Source: a virus
Lineage: Duplodnaviria; Heunggongvirae; Uroviricota; Caudoviricetes
Virus record (IMG/VR): IMGVR_UViG_2713896785_000012
DNA: 16,021 bases
Direction: 5' to 3' (one strand)
Made by a program: the position numbers and the translations under genes
In this document: piece after piece, positions 5,840-13,318 of the stretch
How the letters are laid out: each line of letters opens with the position of its first letter
Position numbering within the stretch: position 1 is the stretch's first letter
The notes under the pieces: generated by a model
What the model was told of the DNA's origin: nothing
The model's input: only the letters and a program-made list of their open reading frames with translations
Database searches by the model: none

Positions 5840-5863
5840 AAAAAAAACCTGCCACAGCAGGTT
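5840..5863 (-). terminator. Terminator-like hairpin plus U-run between the T stop and the tape-measure start
   Basis: On the minus strand AACCTGC-tgtg-GCAGGTT (plus 5846..5863) is followed by TTTTTT (plus 5840..5845), then the SD and ATG of the tape measure gene. Confidence 0.4.
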
Positions 5864-5874
5864 TTCATCATTAT

Positions 5875-6554
5875 TTATGACATTGCTGCAAGGCTCAGCG
5901 CGTCTTCCAGCGCCGCAAACGGATCCACCTCCGGCTTATCCTCATCCTCGCCCCAGCAGAGCATGGCGTCCTTCAGTGCAACATTCATCCCCTGTGCCCC
6001 GAAAACCGCTTTCACGATCTGTGCATTACGGATATCCCCGCGCTCATCACCCAGCGGGGATACCCTGTCGAACTCCATCCACATCATCGCCTCGCTCGCA
6101 CTCAGGCTGTGCCGCAGTTCGGATAAGGTGCGCCCCAGACGGAGCGCAAGTCGCATCAGAAAGCGAATTTCCGGGCGGGCTACTTTTTTCTGGCCGACTC
6201 TGCATCAGCGATCAGTTCCAGTGCCTGACGCAGCAACCGGGCATGTACCGGACCATAGACGGCCAGCACCTGCTCACGGTCGTCCGGAGTGAACACCCGT
6301 TGCAGGTCAGTATCACACAGGACATCGCAGAACAGCGTCACATCCGCTTCCAGGTTACGGCGGGTTTTCGCCACCACCGACAGGGTATCGTCATCCTCTC
6401 CATCACCATTGAGCACTTCCTGCCACAGATACCAGGCCTCTGCCGAAGGCTCCCGCAGCACCACGCTGACATTTCTCCATTCCGGCACCTTCACCGTTTT
6501 ATGACGGAACCCCGACAGTCTGGCCAGCGCCAGTGTTTTCAGATCTTTTGCCAT
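5875..6554 (-). CDS. Tail assembly chaperone G-T fusion made by programmed -1 ribosomal frameshift (lambda G-T-like)
   Basis: The -1 frame is open across the G stop and continues to stop 5875..5877. Its product (...VARPEIRFLMRLALRLGRTLSELRH...EDEDKPEVDPFAALEDALSLAAMS) is acidic and T-like. Slippery heptamer A-AAA-AAG at 6183..6189 (minus strand) is the last two G codons. Confidence 0.6.
6180..6554 (-). CDS. Tail assembly chaperone (gpG-like)
   Basis: 124-aa acidic protein encoded directly between the major tail protein and the tape measure gene, ending in the slippery site. Assignment is by position and composition. Confidence 0.6.
   Translation of the reverse strand: MAKDLKTLALARLSGFRHKTVKVPEWRNVSVVLREPSAEAWYLWQEVLNGDGEDDDTLSVVAKTRRNLEADVTLFCDVLCDTDLQRVFTPDDREQVLAVYGPVHARLLRQALELIADAESARKK
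6183..6189 (-). other. Slippery heptanucleotide A AAA AAG for the G to G-T -1 frameshift
   Basis: Plus strand cttttttt read on the minus strand is AAAAAAG in the X-XXY-YYZ register of the G frame, immediately before the TAG stop at 6180..6182. Confidence 0.6.
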
Positions 6555-6559
6555 AAGCC

Positions 6560-7276
6560 TTATCCGCCCGCACCATTAACCGTTACTGTACACGCATCAG
6601 AGGTAATGCTCTGCGGCTGTTCTGCAGAATCCGTTACCTCGCAGGTATAAGCCCCCTTATCACCTGACTGCGTATTGGCTTTACTGAAAGTGTCAGTAGT
6701 CTGTCCCTCTACCGGCTGACCATCCTTCTTCCAGGCGTGTTTATAAGGCGGCGTTCCCCCGTTGACACTGACTGACATTGTCAGCAGCGCACCGGTATTC
6801 ACGGTAAGTGTCTTCTCCAGATTTTTCACAAACGCCAGCGGTACCACATAGGACACCGGTTTACCCTTCAGGCGAAGTGAAAACGTTGCAGCCACCACGC
6901 CGTTGGTACCGGATGACCAGGTGTGCTGACGCACTTCCGCCAGGAACTTAAAGCCCTTACCGGACGGAAACTGCACCTTAAACGCATACACCGTGTCATT
7001 GTCATAGGCATCACGCAGGGCGTTCTGGGCCTGATTCAGATAAAAATTACCCGACATGGAAATCTCGGACGACGCCCCCAGACCGTTGATGTTCTCCTGC
7101 TCTGTGGAGCAGAGCGTGGTCACATCAATATCCTGTTTCTGACCGGCGGTGAACTGGACTTCCTTGATGGTGCAGTCCAGGCGCAGATATTCCGCCTTCT
7201 CCATGGTTTCAGCAGTCGCCGGGGCAGATGAAATCATCACCTGCGTCAGCTGTGAACGTTCATACAAAGCAGACAT
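6560..7276 (-). CDS. Major tail (tube) protein with C-terminal Ig-like domain
   Basis: Start ATG 7274..7276 is preceded by AGGAGG (MSALYERSQ...). The longer track ORF to 7405 would run through the upstream hairpin and gene. The C-terminal ~80 aa (TLTVNTGALLTMSVSVNGGTPPYKHAWKKDGQPVEGQTTDTFSKANTQSGDKGAYTCEVTD...CTVTV) has an immunoglobulin-like repeat signature. Position is that of the major tail protein. Confidence 0.75.
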   Translation of the reverse strand: MSALYERSQLTQVMISSAPATAETMEKAEYLRLDCTIKEVQFTAGQKQDIDVTTLCSTEQENINGLGASSEISMSGNFYLNQAQNALRDAYDNDTVYAFKVQFPSGKGFKFLAEVRQHTWSSGTNGVVAATFSLRLKGKPVSYVVPLAFVKNLEKTLTVNTGALLTMSVSVNGGTPPYKHAWKKDGQPVEGQTTDTFSKANTQSGDKGAYTCEVTDSAEQPQSITSDACTVTVNGAGG

Positions 7277-7292
7277 TCTGCCTCCTGATAAT

Positions 7293-11131: not shown

Positions 11132-11298
11132 TCGCCATGCTCCGCATCACGTTTCTTTTTCTGACCTGCCGGACGTCGCGCTGTGATGTACTCCGCCTTC
11201 CCCAGGCGAACCAGCACCTCCGCACACGGCTGTGCCACATCACGGATATCCCCGGCCCGGGCATCATGCGTGCCCTGCAGATACTGGATTTTTGCCAT
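11077..11298 (-). CDS. Small hypothetical protein (73 aa) immediately upstream of portal; possibly a gpW-like head completion protein
   Basis: ORF MAKIQYLQGTHDARAGDIRD...KKKRDAEHGE... The only support is size and position before the portal (lambda W precedes B). Weak SD and no confident similarity. Confidence 0.35.
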   Translation of the reverse strand: MAKIQYLQGTHDARAGDIRDVAQPCAEVLVRLGKAEYITARRPAGQKKKRDAEHGECGTFCGEPEKTRNQDVT

Positions 11299-11342
11299 CT
11301 GTTACTGCGGGAAGCTCGCGCCTCCCGCCCTCCTCATCAGAC

Positions 11343-13280
11343 TCAGCCACCGGACGCAGTTCCGTAGTTCACACCGGTGATCACCGCCACTGCCGCGGTA
11401 CGGCGACGACGCCAGTTGATCCAGCGCTCCGCACGGATGGCCACGCTGCCGGTCTGAAACATGGAGACCAGTTCCACCGGTGACGGTGTGCTGCTGTCGC
11501 TGGTCGGTTCAGACTGCATCTCCAGTGACGCTTCACGGGACATATCCACCGCCACACCGCCGTCATCAGCCAGATAAATATCCGGTGCATTCACCAGTAC
11601 CAGCTGGTCACCCACATACTGGGAGACAATCACCGGAAGCCCCTGGAAGGTCCCGCCCAGCAAGGTCATGTCCGGATATTCCTTCTGCCCCAGCGCATTT
11701 TTACGCATGGACAGCGCCAGGGCATTCGTGCTGGACATCAGCCAGACCGCACCGGTGGGCTGCAGATTTGCCGTCACAAACTGGCCAAACGCGGCCTCGG
11801 CATCCGCATCCGGGTTACCGGTTGATGCCGTGCCCTTCACATCATGGGTGATGGACGCCGGGGAGACATCCGCCACCGCCGCTTTTTTCGGGTCCACAAA
11901 GTCTGTGTCCAGACGCGCCACCACCGCTTCTGCCAGCGCATTACGGACCAGCGCATCAGCTGCCGGACTGGAAAAACGGATCAGCTCTTCCGTCAGTACC
12001 GCAATGGCCGACACCTTCGCATGACTGAAGGTGATGGATTCAAAATCAAACTTCGTCAGGGGTCTGGCCTTACCCTCCCCCACCCAGCCGGCAGCACCAC
12101 CGGACACCTGGGCATGCACGCGGATATTGAACGGCACCTGACGAAGTGCAGGGATCCCGCCCTGACCAAATCGCCCGATAATGGTCTGCGGACGCAGGTA
12201 ATCAATAAAGTCCTGCGCATATTCCTGGTATTCAGACAGGCTGCCTGCCCACTGCGGGTCCGTGGTGGTCCCTGCCCCCACCGCCGATTTCAGGACATGA
12301 TGCAGACGGCTGTCATCCGGATACTGACGACGGGCCACTTCCAGGGCTTCAGAGCGGACACCTTTAGCCGCGGCCAGTGATTTGGCAAAGCGGGCGAAAC
12401 CAATCCCCTTCTCCAGTTTCTGCTCAACACGGATCACCGGCGCTGAAGCCACCGTGGCCACATTCCCGTTACCGGCCTGTTTCACCGGCTGTGCCGTGGC
12501 GGCCTTACTGGTTTCCAGTTCACGCAGACGCTTCAGGTGCGCATCCACCTGACGGATTTCCGCTGCGGTGTTGTCGTAGTGCTCTTCCTCTTCCACATCC
12601 AGTGTGCGGCCTTCCTCTGCGGCTTTGTTCATGATCTCCTCAAGGGAGGCTGCCAGCGCCGCACGCTTGTTTTCAAAACTTTTAATCTGTTCACCAGTAT
12701 TCATTGCTGACTTTTCCTTATGAAAAGAGGTTATTGACTGTGCCGAAGCGCCGGCAGAAGATGCGATTTTCACCACCGGTTTCCGGTTGCCGGACGCGGC
12801 AGAAAACGGGCGGTCGAAATATTTAATGGTCCGGATGGTGCATTCCGCATTCGCGGGCACGGTGACGGCAGACACCTCCATCAGCTCCCAGCGCAGAAAA
12901 TGCAGTCCGCCTCCGTCCAGATAAGTGTATTCATGGGGCCGGAAGCCCACAGAAAGCCCCCTGACCAGCCCGGTCTTAATGGCAGCCCAGGCCTCATCCA
13001 GCCGGGCTGCCATCTGGGAGGGCATCCCCGGCTCCGGCTTCACCAGCATTGCCGTGATTTCCAGCCCTTCCCTGACCCGACGCACCGTACACTGGCCTAC
13101 AGGGCGGGAATGGTCATGCTGCCAGAGAAACGGGATCGTACTGCCAAACTCCGCCCCCTCCGGCTCCAGGATGTCACCATCCCGATCCGGAGAAGGCGTT
13201 GACGCAATCCCGGTGATCACCCGTTCATCCTCGCTGAAGGATTTCACCGTCAGCAGGGAACAGGCCCGTTTAAGAGTCAC
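11343..13280 (-). CDS. Fused prohead protease - scaffold-like (delta) linker - HK97-fold major capsid protein
   Basis: 645-codon uninterrupted ORF, GTG start 13278..13280 with GGAGG 5 nt upstream. The N-terminal ~160 aa carry prohead-protease hallmarks (ITGIASTPSPDRDGDILEPEGAEF, PFLWQHDH, GLSVGFRP, ELMEVSAVTVPANAECTI). Residues ~185-255 are Glu/Lys/Ala-rich and coiled-coil-like (EQIKSFENKRAALAASLEEIMNKAAEEG...LKRLRELE). The C-terminal ~380 aa resemble HK97 gp5 (LRPQTIIG, AKVSAIAVLTEELIRFSSPAADALVRNALAEAV, TLLGGTFQGLPVIVSQYV, VDMSREASLE). Confidence 0.85.
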   Translation of the reverse strand: MTLKRACSLLTVKSFSEDERVITGIASTPSPDRDGDILEPEGAEFGSTIPFLWQHDHSRPVGQCTVRRVREGLEITAMLVKPEPGMPSQMAARLDEAWAAIKTGLVRGLSVGFRPHEYTYLDGGGLHFLRWELMEVSAVTVPANAECTIRTIKYFDRPFSAASGNRKPVVKIASSAGASAQSITSFHKEKSAMNTGEQIKSFENKRAALAASLEEIMNKAAEEGRTLDVEEEEHYDNTAAEIRQVDAHLKRLRELETSKAATAQPVKQAGNGNVATVASAPVIRVEQKLEKGIGFARFAKSLAAAKGVRSEALEVARRQYPDDSRLHHVLKSAVGAGTTTDPQWAGSLSEYQEYAQDFIDYLRPQTIIGRFGQGGIPALRQVPFNIRVHAQVSGGAAGWVGEGKARPLTKFDFESITFSHAKVSAIAVLTEELIRFSSPAADALVRNALAEAVVARLDTDFVDPKKAAVADVSPASITHDVKGTASTGNPDADAEAAFGQFVTANLQPTGAVWLMSSTNALALSMRKNALGQKEYPDMTLLGGTFQGLPVIVSQYVGDQLVLVNAPDIYLADDGGVAVDMSREASLEMQSEPTSDSSTPSPVELVSMFQTGSVAIRAERWINWRRRRTAAVAVITGVNYGTASGG

Positions 13281-13297
13281 ATCAGCCTCCTGAAAAT

Positions 13298-13318
13298 AAA
13301 AAAACCGCCGCAGCGGTT
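13298..13318 (-). terminator. Terminator-like hairpin plus U-run between the terminase large subunit and the protease-capsid gene
   Basis: On the minus strand AACCGC-tgcg-GCGGTT (plus 13303..13318) is followed by TTTTTTTATTTT, then GGAGG and the GTG start. Confidence 0.4.

Follow-up and report, generated by a model that had tools for sequence, protein, structure and literature searches.

Probable intrinsic terminators between structural genes in the late operon of an EHEC-type lambdoid prophage

Four hairpin plus U-run elements, real and far beyond chance expectation, are present in the window (the whole 16,021-nt stretch of DNA analysed), which represents the late operon for the structural genes of a lambdoid prophage of EHEC type, every gene lying on the minus strand. 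We consider that they are probably, with a probability of roughly 0.6, intrinsic (Rho-independent) terminators situated in the gaps of the late operon, which would be read through by Q-modified polymerase, have an insulating role and end moron transcripts. The first-pass annotation had likened them to intrinsic terminators inside a single late operon, and this likeness is upheld by their anatomy, strand specificity and position, by their presence in relatives, by annotations in HK97-like phages and by the location of Q in phage 2851, a complete relative in which Q lies upstream of the late operon and in the same orientation, whilst their function is one that we infer from sequence. The window is 95–97% identical to phage 2851 and to Stx1a and Stx2c phages. 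During lytic growth, Q-modified polymerase from the late promoter would ignore the hairpins and generate one long transcript, and unmodified polymerase arriving from moron or stray promoters would stop at them in vivo. Such terminators could keep the virion genes silent in the lysogen and supply a ready-made 3' end to any gene inserted just upstream, each of them being packed against the next ribosome-binding site.

Anatomy and non-randomness of the elements

All four elements were located on the minus (coding) strand, no more than 1–2 nt from where the first-pass annotation had placed them. Between TerL and the protease-capsid gene, a fusion matching both PHROG phrog_617 (major head protein) and phrog_80 (head maturation protease), the hairpin GAACCGC-tgcg-GCGGTTT followed by U7 (13298..13319) lies 24 nt past the TerL stop codon and 21 nt ahead of the GTG at 13280, with a U/A-rich spacer, the Shine-Dalgarno sequence AGGAGG and the GTG start at 13278..13297. 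The hairpin between the tail terminator and major tail protein (phrog_158) genes, AACCCGC-cgcgt-GCGGGTT plus U6 (7293..7315), is 19 nt past the upstream stop codon and 20 nt ahead of the ATG at 7276, and is followed by an AU-rich spacer, AGGAGG and the ATG (7274..7292). Similarly, the element between the tail chaperone gene (T) and the tape measure gene (phrog_339) is AAAACCTGC-tgtg-GCAGGTTTT plus U8 (5840..5865), 9 nt past the T stop codon and 20 nt ahead of the ATG at 5823, with spacer, Shine-Dalgarno sequence GGAG and ATG at 5821..5839. The I/J element (381..411) has a 10-bp stem, ACAGGCACCC-tccg-GGGTGCCTGT, then CG and U5, and the GTG start of J at 336 is approximately 45 nt beyond its U-run. 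A position directly before the ribosome-binding site, proposed for all four, is therefore correct for capsid, major tail and tape measure, whereas the J element is merely near its ribosome-binding site; the proposed stem consensus AACC(N)GC...GC(N)GGTT is indeed common to three sites. Stem energies range from -10 to -21 kcal/mol and U-runs from U5 to U8.

Within the operon, a hairpin is found in each intergenic gap exceeding 40 nt, and the remaining genes abut or overlap. Three of the elements occupy gaps of 51–63 nt with no inserted gene, in which stems are short (6–8 bp), the motif begins 9–24 nt past the preceding stop codon and the stem-to-start distance is 15–25 nt; the I-J gap measures 245 nt and holds a non-coding insert. 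The fifth gap, within a head module ordered TerL, protease-capsid fusion, portal, contains a 9-bp hairpin with one G·U pair, GCGGGAGGC-gcga-GCUUCCCGC (11307..11328, minus strand), that follows the capsid stop codon and directly precedes a small ORF starting at 11298. A U-run is absent at this hairpin, its folding z-score is -3.6 (56-nt segment), and mEpX1, IME307 and lambda likewise have a hairpin just past the capsid gene. It is probably a fifth, weaker relative of the four elements.

A strict motif was defined as a perfect Watson-Crick stem of at least 6 bp with a loop of 3–6 nt and at least five T beginning no more than 2 nt from the stem. A scan of the window with this motif returned exactly the four named sites, all on the minus strand and with no match on the plus strand, against a mean of 0.013 matches (maximum 1) in 300 dinucleotide-preserving shuffles. 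Overall enrichment was not found with a generic terminator-like scan of the window (18 observed against 13.5 expected). Folding energies, which the first-pass annotation had proposed to compare with shuffled controls, were clearly exceptional at the J site (z -5.0 in 56-nt segments) but not at the other three (tape measure -2.3, capsid -2.15, major tail -0.8). The significance of the elements resides in the complete motif and its placement, not in the generic scan or the folding z-scores. Weak points in their likeness to terminators are the shortness of three stems, the CG that splits the U-run from the stem at J, the low major-tail z-score and the missing U-run of the post-capsid hairpin.

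Control of stoichiometry by simple attenuation, another of the roles originally suggested, fits poorly since capsid and major tail, the two virion proteins of highest abundance, each have a hairpin in front of their gene, and termination would lower their expression.

Conservation in related phages

Comparison with related phages, as the first-pass annotation had advised, revealed hairpins kept at the same junctions down to 46–48% protein identity. Among 79 close relatives, variation in the TerL/capsid hairpin was confined to the loop and flanks, and in Pseudomonas phage IME307, whose capsid fusion is 48% identical, the same junction has a different hairpin (GCCCGC/GCGGGC) followed by a T-rich run, GGAG and ATG. 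The major-tail hairpin was present in 77/77 close relatives, and a hairpin with T-run was found 18–33 nt ahead of the start codon at 20/20 genome loci (Serratia, Pectobacterium, Enterobacter, Providencia, Salinicola and others) encoding major tail proteins 46–98% identical, where at least six unrelated stem sequences were observed and the surrounding non-coding bases have completely diverged. Stems at the distant loci are unrelated between lineages, and 14 of 16 loci had a hairpin and T-run between chaperone and tape measure genes, ahead of the tape measure start. Close relatives carry a second allele of this hairpin differing by a compensatory base-pair insertion. The I/J hairpin occurs at roughly two thirds of 80 J loci, and its stem shows a compensatory swap of C-G for U-A as well as G·U variants on the coding strand, whilst lambda and mEpX1 have unrelated hairpins plus a U-rich tract on the coding strand at this junction, in gaps of only approximately 50–60 nt. 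Stem variants of the relatives included approximately nine internal G·U pairs on the coding strand versus one A·C, and the T-run was on the 3' side without exception. The compensatory changes and coding-strand G·U pairs point to selection on pairing in the coding-strand RNA. In lambda, two of these junctions lack a hairpin, the genes abutting, with a gap of 7 nt and no hairpin before the major tail gene, indicating that late operons under Q control do not generally need such elements.

The major-tail hairpin was found in all relatives examined, whether an insertion was present or not, which is stronger conservation than expected of a bystander terminator or the scar of a lost insertion and hints at a role in lytic growth. 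A rather unlikely explanation is that the hairpins are stability or processing punctuation of the full-length late transcript, with cleavage in the AU-rich tract and protection of 3' (possibly 5') ends, so that the capsid-to-neck and major tail-chaperones segments would persist at different levels. Stabilization of the preceding mRNA segment by an intercistronic hairpin is well established in bacteria, with REP in malEFG and the puf operon as precedents, and in the window the major tail-G-T segment is bracketed by hairpins on both sides, each hairpin is followed by a single-stranded U- or AU-rich tract, and the post-capsid hairpin without a U-run suits a stabilizer more than a terminator. The retention of the major-tail hairpin at all 20 distant loci irrespective of an extra gene also agrees with this. 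However, stabilizers need no U-run, yet an uninterrupted T5–T8 is kept at nearly all sites in nearly all lineages; stems of 6–10 bp are too short for RNase III, and 3'-end protection by a hairpin upstream of capsid or major tail cannot raise these above their upstream neighbours.

A translational role would also be compatible with the short, conserved distance between hairpin and start codon; in it, the stem isolates the downstream ribosome-binding site from upstream folding and ribosomes and the U-run is a 30S landing site via ribosomal protein S1. We regard this as decidedly unlikely. U-rich tracts preceding a Shine-Dalgarno sequence are known to enhance translation, the Shine-Dalgarno sequence here adjoins the U-run, two sites precede the most abundant virion proteins, and the stem-to-start distance of 15–25 nt is held in the window and at more than 30 distant loci, although genome compaction would give equally tight spacing. 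The unit from hairpin to ribosome-binding site is never split, inserted genes always lying upstream, but a terminator downstream of an insertion would equally leave it intact. Moreover, the same layout is seen ahead of low-copy proteins (tape measure, K in 2851, J in lambda and mEpX1), the U-run at the J site of the window is 45 nt from the start, and the lambda major tail protein is highly expressed despite its 7-nt gap.

Inserted genes and small RNAs at the same junctions

Morons, extra genes with independent expression, lie immediately upstream of the hairpins in relatives. In four of these, 540 nt encoding a lipoprotein have been inserted after the T stop codon and ahead of the tape-measure hairpin, and L258 has a KilA-N-like ORF inserted between a hairpin and the gene that precedes it; among the relatives compared at these lipoprotein and KilA-N-like loci, no insertion was found between hairpin and ribosome-binding site. 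Phage 2851 carries an Arc/Ant insertion between L and K with such a hairpin on either side, whilst the L/K junction of the window has neither insertion nor hairpins. Morons are described as carrying their own promoter and terminator, the original example sitting in the tape-measure slot (PMC3594210), and the moron terminators of HK97 gene 15 and HK022 gene 20 are among the closest known systems. In mEpX1, a homolog of HK97 gp15 (the product of the original moron gene) followed by an annotated terminator occupies the slot of the window's tape-measure hairpin (PMC3594210), and the lipoprotein gene in relatives of the window ends just ahead of that hairpin. In contrast to morons, three of the four hairpins in the window have no gene inserted beside them and the fourth, I/J, has only a non-coding insert, and the major-tail hairpin of its relatives is kept with or without an insertion. 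It follows that the hairpins have the look of resident elements exploited by inserted genes rather than of parts that always travel with them.

It appears very unlikely that the elements are functionless leftovers, the terminators of inserted genes since deleted, tolerated by Q-modified polymerase. Three hairpins of the window do lie in 51–63 nt gaps without an insert where some relatives have a gene, and the L/K hairpins arrive together with the insertion, being present in 2851 and absent from the window. Neutral remnants would decay, however, and here pairing is maintained through compensatory changes and a base-pair insertion, and the major-tail hairpin persists at 20/20 loci down to 46% protein identity amid fully diverged flanking bases.

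At the J site only, the 10-bp hairpin (411-388) might form part of an opposite-strand small-RNA locus instead of terminating late transcription, which seems highly unlikely. In E. coli O157 Sakai, the Hfq crosslinking peaks EcOnc22 and EcOnc23 fall in the homologous I-J gaps of prophages Sp15 and Sp14, where they run antisense to the tail genes; the corresponding stretch of the window is approximately 358-420 on the plus strand, which covers the complement of the I/J hairpin. EcOnc22 gave an approximately 85 nt band that was destabilized without Hfq (Tree 2014, Table S2). The prophage small RNAs PasB and EcOnc22-24, of which PasB and EcOnc22 are known antisense Hfq small-RNA loci, share the I-J gap of homologous EHEC/EPEC prophages with the J-proximal hairpin, but they are encoded on the other strand, nothing equivalent occurs at the three remaining sites, and the PasB end is a different hairpin, on the plus strand at 545-577 of the window beside the I stop codon. 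Against a small-RNA origin of the J hairpin, on the plus strand an A-run precedes it and no U's follow, so there is no terminator there; three relatives have stem variants (G·U) that pair only on the late-gene strand versus one favouring the other strand; and lambda and mEpX1 have their coding-strand hairpin and U-rich tract at this junction in the short gaps described above. Small-RNA and terminator roles can, in any case, coexist at the J site.

Comparison with known systems

The stabilizers of malEFG (REP) and puf resemble the elements in that they are short, rich in GC and placed between the cistrons of a single transcript, but they have no U-run and are not terminators, and only the post-capsid hairpin of the window (11328-11307) is similar in that respect. 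Intrinsic terminators inside antiterminated operons, as proposed for the window, are exemplified by tR' of lambdoid and Stx phages (6S RNA, StxS) and tL2a of lambda (PreS), which halt unmodified polymerase, let polymerase modified by N or Q pass and can yield Hfq-binding small RNAs. Both generate 3' ends in vivo within an antiterminated phage operon, tR' giving StxS (PMC7547250) and tL2a giving PreS. They differ from the sites of the window, which lie between structural genes, in being promoter-proximal or early-operon terminators with mapped 3' ends and known products.

The closest counterparts are in HK97-like phages. The GenBank record of mEpX1 has rho-independent terminators at the tail terminator/major tail, gp15/tape measure and I/J junctions and at three other late-operon junctions, and records of HK633, HK544 and mEp234 have one at the major-tail junction; these are depositor annotations, for which the feature tables record no experimental evidence. 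Junctions (tail terminator/major tail, chaperone region/tape measure and I/J) and strand are the same as in the window, and the mEpX1 terminators have the same layout of GC stem, 4–5 nt loop, T-run, Shine-Dalgarno sequence and start codon (ATG in mEpX1). At the major-tail junction the stem motif is partly shared (CCCGCC/GGCGGG), although the major tail proteins are only 67% identical. The mEpX1 head module differs, with portal, protease and then capsid in place of TerL, protease-capsid fusion and portal, and head-side terminators are consequently at different junctions. The elements of the window are of the intrinsic terminator kind already annotated at the same junctions of HK97-like lambdoid phages, a solid but ordinary finding.

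Gene order and operon setting of the window

All real genes of the window lie on the minus strand, and PHROG matches give the order small terminase (15565-15002), large terminase (TerL, 15005-13344), protease-major capsid fusion (13280-11343), portal (from 11131), adaptor, head closure and neck genes (8806-7676), tail terminator (7679-7335), major tail (7276-6560), chaperones G and T (6554-5875), tape measure (5823-2581), M, L, K and I (2588 to about 582) and the start of J (336), with a small ORF at 11298-11077 on the same strand. Stx1a- and Stx2c-converting phages together with phage 2851 are 95–97% identical to the window across 98% of its length. 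The window genes of phage 2851, which is 95% identical over the window, come after Q, three tRNAs, stx2, the lysis genes and an HNH gene in a single orientation, with terS downstream of the lysis genes; the window therefore appears to be the structural part of a Q-dependent late operon. Q and the late promoter lie beyond the window ends, the position of Q being read from phage 2851 only, and a sigma-70-like site was not found on the coding strand of the window.

Runs of N, mostly of 50 nt, at 205-254, 650-699, 954-1015, 1713-1717, 2112-2161 and 9397-9446 interrupt J, I, K, L and the portal region. These explain at least part of the apparently broken frames, so that several broken-looking ORFs reflect masking or assembly and need not be pseudogenes. 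On the minus strand the portal ORF breaks at 9767-9773 (about 9770), giving a 454-codon ORF and another behind it, with no N run nearby; the phage 2851 homolog is one undivided 859-codon ORF, whilst the Pseudomonas phage IME307 annotation has two portal ORFs with sizes similar to those of the window. A frameshift, an error or a genuine two-gene arrangement could each account for this. Upstream of the small terminase gene, at 15640-15760 and 15800-15850, are three minus-strand copies of TGTTAACYRG, five of the seven GTTAAC sites of the whole window and a G/C-rich palindromic stretch, beside the 3′ end of an HNH endonuclease gene. The repeats and palindrome look like terminase binding sites and a cos cleavage region.

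Anatomy and placement of the hairpins

Four GC hairpins followed by a U-run were present on the coding strand where the first-pass annotation had located them, at the TerL-capsid junction (13319-13298), upstream of the major tail gene (7315-7293), upstream of the tape measure gene (5865-5840) and between I and J (411-381). Stems of 6–10 bp including 4–7 G-C pairs and loops of 4–5 nt fall within the range of intrinsic terminators (stem of about 5–14 bp, loop of 3–8 nt). As in such terminators a U-run follows, with U7, U6 and U8 abutting the stem at three sites and CG then U5 at the J site. The position behind a stop codon is also that of a terminator, the stem beginning 24, 19 and 9 nt past the stops of TerL, the tail terminator gene and T, respectively, and the J site lying within a 245-nt non-coding gap. 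The further proposal that a Shine-Dalgarno sequence and start codon directly follow each hairpin holds at three sites (within about 20 nt) but not at the J site, where the start is about 45 nt past the U-run.

When the window was scanned for a strict motif (perfect stem of at least 6 bp, loop of 3–6 nt and at least five T beginning no more than 2 nt from the stem) the minus strand yielded exactly these four sites and the plus strand yielded none, against an expectation of 0.013 from 300 dinucleotide-preserving shuffles. A generic scan for terminator-like sequences found 18 against 13.5 expected, indicating no overall enrichment. Folding energies of 56-nt windows, proposed earlier as a test against shuffled controls, gave uneven z values (-5.0, -2.3, -2.15 and -0.8); the generic z-score is too insensitive for a 20-nt hairpin in a 56-nt window and the motif-specific shuffle test was used in its place. 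A hairpin is present in every intergenic gap of the operon longer than 40 nt, including a fifth behind the capsid gene, and the remaining genes abut or overlap. Placement of the hairpins is non-random, and chance and host repeat elements were rejected as explanations on the computed numbers.

The post-capsid hairpin (11307-11328, minus strand), between the capsid stop and the small ORF at 11298-11077, is a 9 bp GC stem with one G·U pair and no U-run; a hairpin after the capsid gene is also found in the HK97-like phage mEpX1, phage IME307 and lambda. Inside the minor tail gene M a terminator-like sequence (2362-2386, minus strand; GGCATGGT-ggtt-ACCGTGCC with one G·U pair, plus T5) may be there by chance.

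Assignment to known RNA families was also considered. Rfam searches of the whole window (E up to 1) and of the major-tail region (E up to 10) returned only matches below the gathering threshold. Those at 7293-7388 were isrK (24.7 bits, threshold 50), isrD (22.7 bits, threshold 37) and the Trp leader (21.9 bits, threshold 41), and membership of all three was rejected, the agreement with the isrK and isrD alignments being mainly in the terminator hairpin. HnrS (EcOnc10-12), reported within prophage late genes, was discarded since it maps to the gap between Rz and a DUF3950 gene in Sakai Sp9, 5′ of the HNH and terminase genes and outside the window; the terminase genes of Sp9 are those of this module. 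EcOnc35 of Sakai Sp4 was likewise discarded as a product of the TerL-capsid hairpin on account of its location near the holin gene.

Conservation of the hairpins and the strand of the structure

Comparison across relatives, suggested in the first-pass annotation, indicated that hairpins are kept at the same junctions in both close and distant loci. The major-tail hairpin was present in all 77 scorable IMG/VR loci (major tail protein 89–100% identical) as 13 sequence variants, and the tape-measure hairpin in 74/74 loci. Alleles of the latter, GAACCGC-tgag-GCGGTT and AAAACCTGC-tgtg-GCAGGTTTT, differ by one base inserted in each arm (T and A), a compensatory change producing an extra base pair. 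Variation of the TerL-capsid hairpin over 79 loci was confined to the loop and flanks. The I-J hairpin was found in about two thirds of 80 J loci, its variants including a double change from C-G to U-A and others that pair only via G·U on the coding strand.

For the distant comparison one genome per bacterial species was taken, giving 20 loci from Symbiopectobacterium, Serratia, Phytobacter, Leclercia, Pectobacterium, Enterobacter, Kosakonia, Superficieibacter, Brenneria, Providencia and Salinicola with major tail proteins 46–98% identical to that of the window. All 20 carry a GC hairpin and T-run ending 18–33 nt before the major tail start codon, and 14 of the 16 reaching the tape measure gene carry one 15–24 nt before its start. 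The stems are unrelated across lineages (for example GCCGCC/GGCGGC, GACCGCC/GGCGGTT, AAGCTGC/GCAGCTT and GCCACC/GGTGGT) and the flanking non-coding bases have diverged completely. Phage IME307, with a capsid fusion 48% identical, has GCCCGC/GCGGGC, a T-rich tract, GGAG and ATG in the TerL-capsid gap. Lambda has no hairpin at the U-V or T-H junctions, where genes abut; one is present after gene E, and its I-J gap contains AAACCGCC-ugcg-GGCGGUUU with a U-rich tract, GGAG and the start of J behind it. A hairpin with the AACCCGC...GCGGGTT motif of the window and a T-rich tail also occurs in lambda (4484-4505 of the collected locus, L003) in the 5′ part of gene C, just past the portal gene B.

Taken together, the stems that were collected contain about nine internal G·U pairs on the coding strand versus one position pairing only on the other strand, and the T-run lies 3′ of the stem on the coding strand in every case. 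This bias and the position of the T-run indicate that the selected structure is that of the late-gene-strand RNA. The view that the hairpins are neutral scars of lost insertions is contradicted by the compensatory changes in the stems and by conservation of the major-tail hairpin in 20/20 distant loci.

Three other explanations rank below termination, although they are compatible with it and not mutually exclusive. A role in mRNA stability or processing ranks lower: it would account for the post-capsid hairpin without a U-run and for the invariable major-tail hairpin, yet leaves unexplained the long U-runs that are retained almost everywhere. Processing of the T7 type by RNase III was rejected since it needs a duplex of at least roughly 20 bp and the stems here have 6–10 bp. 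Action of the hairpin-to-ribosome-binding-site unit in translation, also ranked lower, would explain both the fixed spacing of 15–25 nt and the fact that the unit is never split; against this, low-copy proteins are preceded by the same cassette and the lambda major tail protein is plentiful without it. Control of stoichiometry by attenuation fits poorly, as two of the hairpins precede the virion proteins of highest abundance.

At the J site the alternative to a late-strand terminator is part of a small RNA on the opposite strand. Sakai Sp15 and Sp14 and EPEC PP6 have I-J gaps homologous to that of the window (336-582). PP6 encodes PasB (1466343-1466261), an 83-nt Hfq-dependent sRNA on the strand opposite the tail genes with its 3′ end 6 nt from the I stop codon (Pearl Mizrahi et al. 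2021). The PasB-homologous stretch is at 496-577 on the plus strand of the window, antisense to the tail genes, and its end coincides with the best plus-strand terminator of the window (545-577; CCCGCAG...CTGCGGG plus T7) beside the I stop. The stem of this homolog is conserved relative to E2348/69 and the loop differs; the homolog is unannotated in related phage records. EcOnc22 and EcOnc23 are antisense Hfq crosslinking peaks in the Sp15 and Sp14 I-J gaps, respectively, EcOnc22 giving an Hfq-dependent band of about 85 nt (Tree et al. 2014). Both peaks map to about 358-420 on the plus strand, covering the complement of the J-proximal hairpin; this position and the PasB homolog are on the same strand and 75 nt apart. 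An sRNA of the PasB/EcOnc22 type is homologous in position to the J hairpin but on the strand opposite to the hairpin and U-run, and the hairpin was not assigned to this class. Because of the coding-strand G·U variants and the unrelated coding-strand hairpins in lambda and mEpX1, we favour a late-strand terminator as the probable identity of the J site, whilst the I-J gap is clearly also a small-RNA locus. A 31-codon ORF in this gap was rejected as an inserted protein gene and taken as non-coding, since its frame is not preserved in Sakai Sp15 and indels abound in the central part of the gap. For annotation, the hairpin sites can be labelled confidently and the I-J gap deserves a small-RNA locus label.

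Termination, inserted genes and comparison with known elements

The best-supported reading, to which we assign a probability of roughly 0.6, is that put forward in the first-pass annotation: the hairpins would be intrinsic terminators in an antitermination-dependent late operon, an identity favoured alike by their anatomy and strand, their location behind stop codons, their conservation and independent annotation. From these features we infer that unmodified polymerase would halt at the sites, that Q-modified polymerase would read through them and that they could insulate the genes downstream. There is precedent in tR′ of lambda and Stx phages, where unmodified polymerase stops and Q-modified polymerase reads through (PMC7547250); tL2a in the N-dependent early operon of lambda is an analogous case. 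As resident insulators the hairpins would keep the virion genes silent if transcription begins anywhere but at the Q-loaded late promoter and would provide a 3′ end for genes inserted directly upstream, and on this preferred reading that is why inserted genes always lie between the upstream stop and the hairpin.

No inserted gene is present upstream of the hairpins in the window, where three gaps of 51–63 nt are ORF-free and the I-J gap is without a conserved ORF frame; this feature of moron terminators, a moron being an extra independently expressed prophage gene, is found in relatives. It occurs there at the tape-measure slot (loci L036, L048 and L058). In four loci 540 nt are inserted between the T stop and the hairpin, encoding in late-gene orientation a 137-residue protein with a lipoprotein signal peptide, and in several distant loci an additional ORF separates the upstream gene from the hairpin, one example being the 176-residue KilA-N-like ORF before the major-tail hairpin of locus L258. 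At the L-K junction of phage 2851 a P22-like mnt/arc/ant insertion has a hairpin-plus-T-run element on either side, the second directly 5′ of the K Shine-Dalgarno sequence; unlike phage 2851, the window has neither the insertion nor the hairpins at this junction. The insertion in phage 2851 (locus L001, 2557-2611 and 3778-4223) is of immI type and comprises Arc and Ant together with a Mnt-like ORF that lies unannotated on the opposite strand.

The hairpins may have a second role during lytic growth. It is possible, though we regard it as doubtful, that the cassettes do more than insulate genes in the prophage and form an ancient, obligatory punctuation in this family of operons for siphovirus morphogenesis, active in lytic growth and serving as docking points for new genes. 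They would then predate the spread of the family over Enterobacterales, Pseudomonas and Halomonadaceae and would act in one or more ways as boundaries of mRNA-stability segments, ribosome landing sites or sources of 3′-end-derived Hfq-binding RNAs, for which PreS, derived from tL2a of lambda, is a model. They would double as fixed docking points at which new prophage-expressed genes are captured.

If the hairpins are terminators, they would mark stops for ordinary polymerase within the virion gene cluster of a Shiga-toxin-type prophage, with consequences for the tightness of late-gene silencing in lysogens and for the way extra prophage-expressed genes, for example those for exclusion proteins, antirepressors and small RNAs, are accommodated in the operon without activating virion genes. 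Every relative examined has a terminator-like hairpin 15–33 nt upstream of the major tail gene, and this conservation offers a testable handle on why Q-dependent late operons retain internal terminators at all.

Elements of this kind are already known: related phages have them annotated at these junctions, and they are linked to the moron concept; the added interest lies in the depth of conservation at the major-tail junction and in the link to inserted genes. The GenBank record of mEpX1 has rho-independent terminator features at six late-operon junctions (behind the portal and capsid genes, and at the tail terminator-major tail, gp15 homolog-tape measure, gp20 homolog-I and I-J boundaries) as well as a stem-loop after the major tail gene. 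Three of the six junctions coincide with those of the window, and in mEpX1 a T-run, a Shine-Dalgarno sequence and ATG come after every terminator. At the major-tail junction a terminator feature also stands in the records of HK633, HK544 and mEp234, likewise HK97-like lambdoid phages. HK97 gene 15, between the chaperone and tape measure genes, is the element that gave rise to the word moron, and morons are described as equipped with a promoter and terminator of their own, permitting expression from the repressed prophage (PMC3594210).
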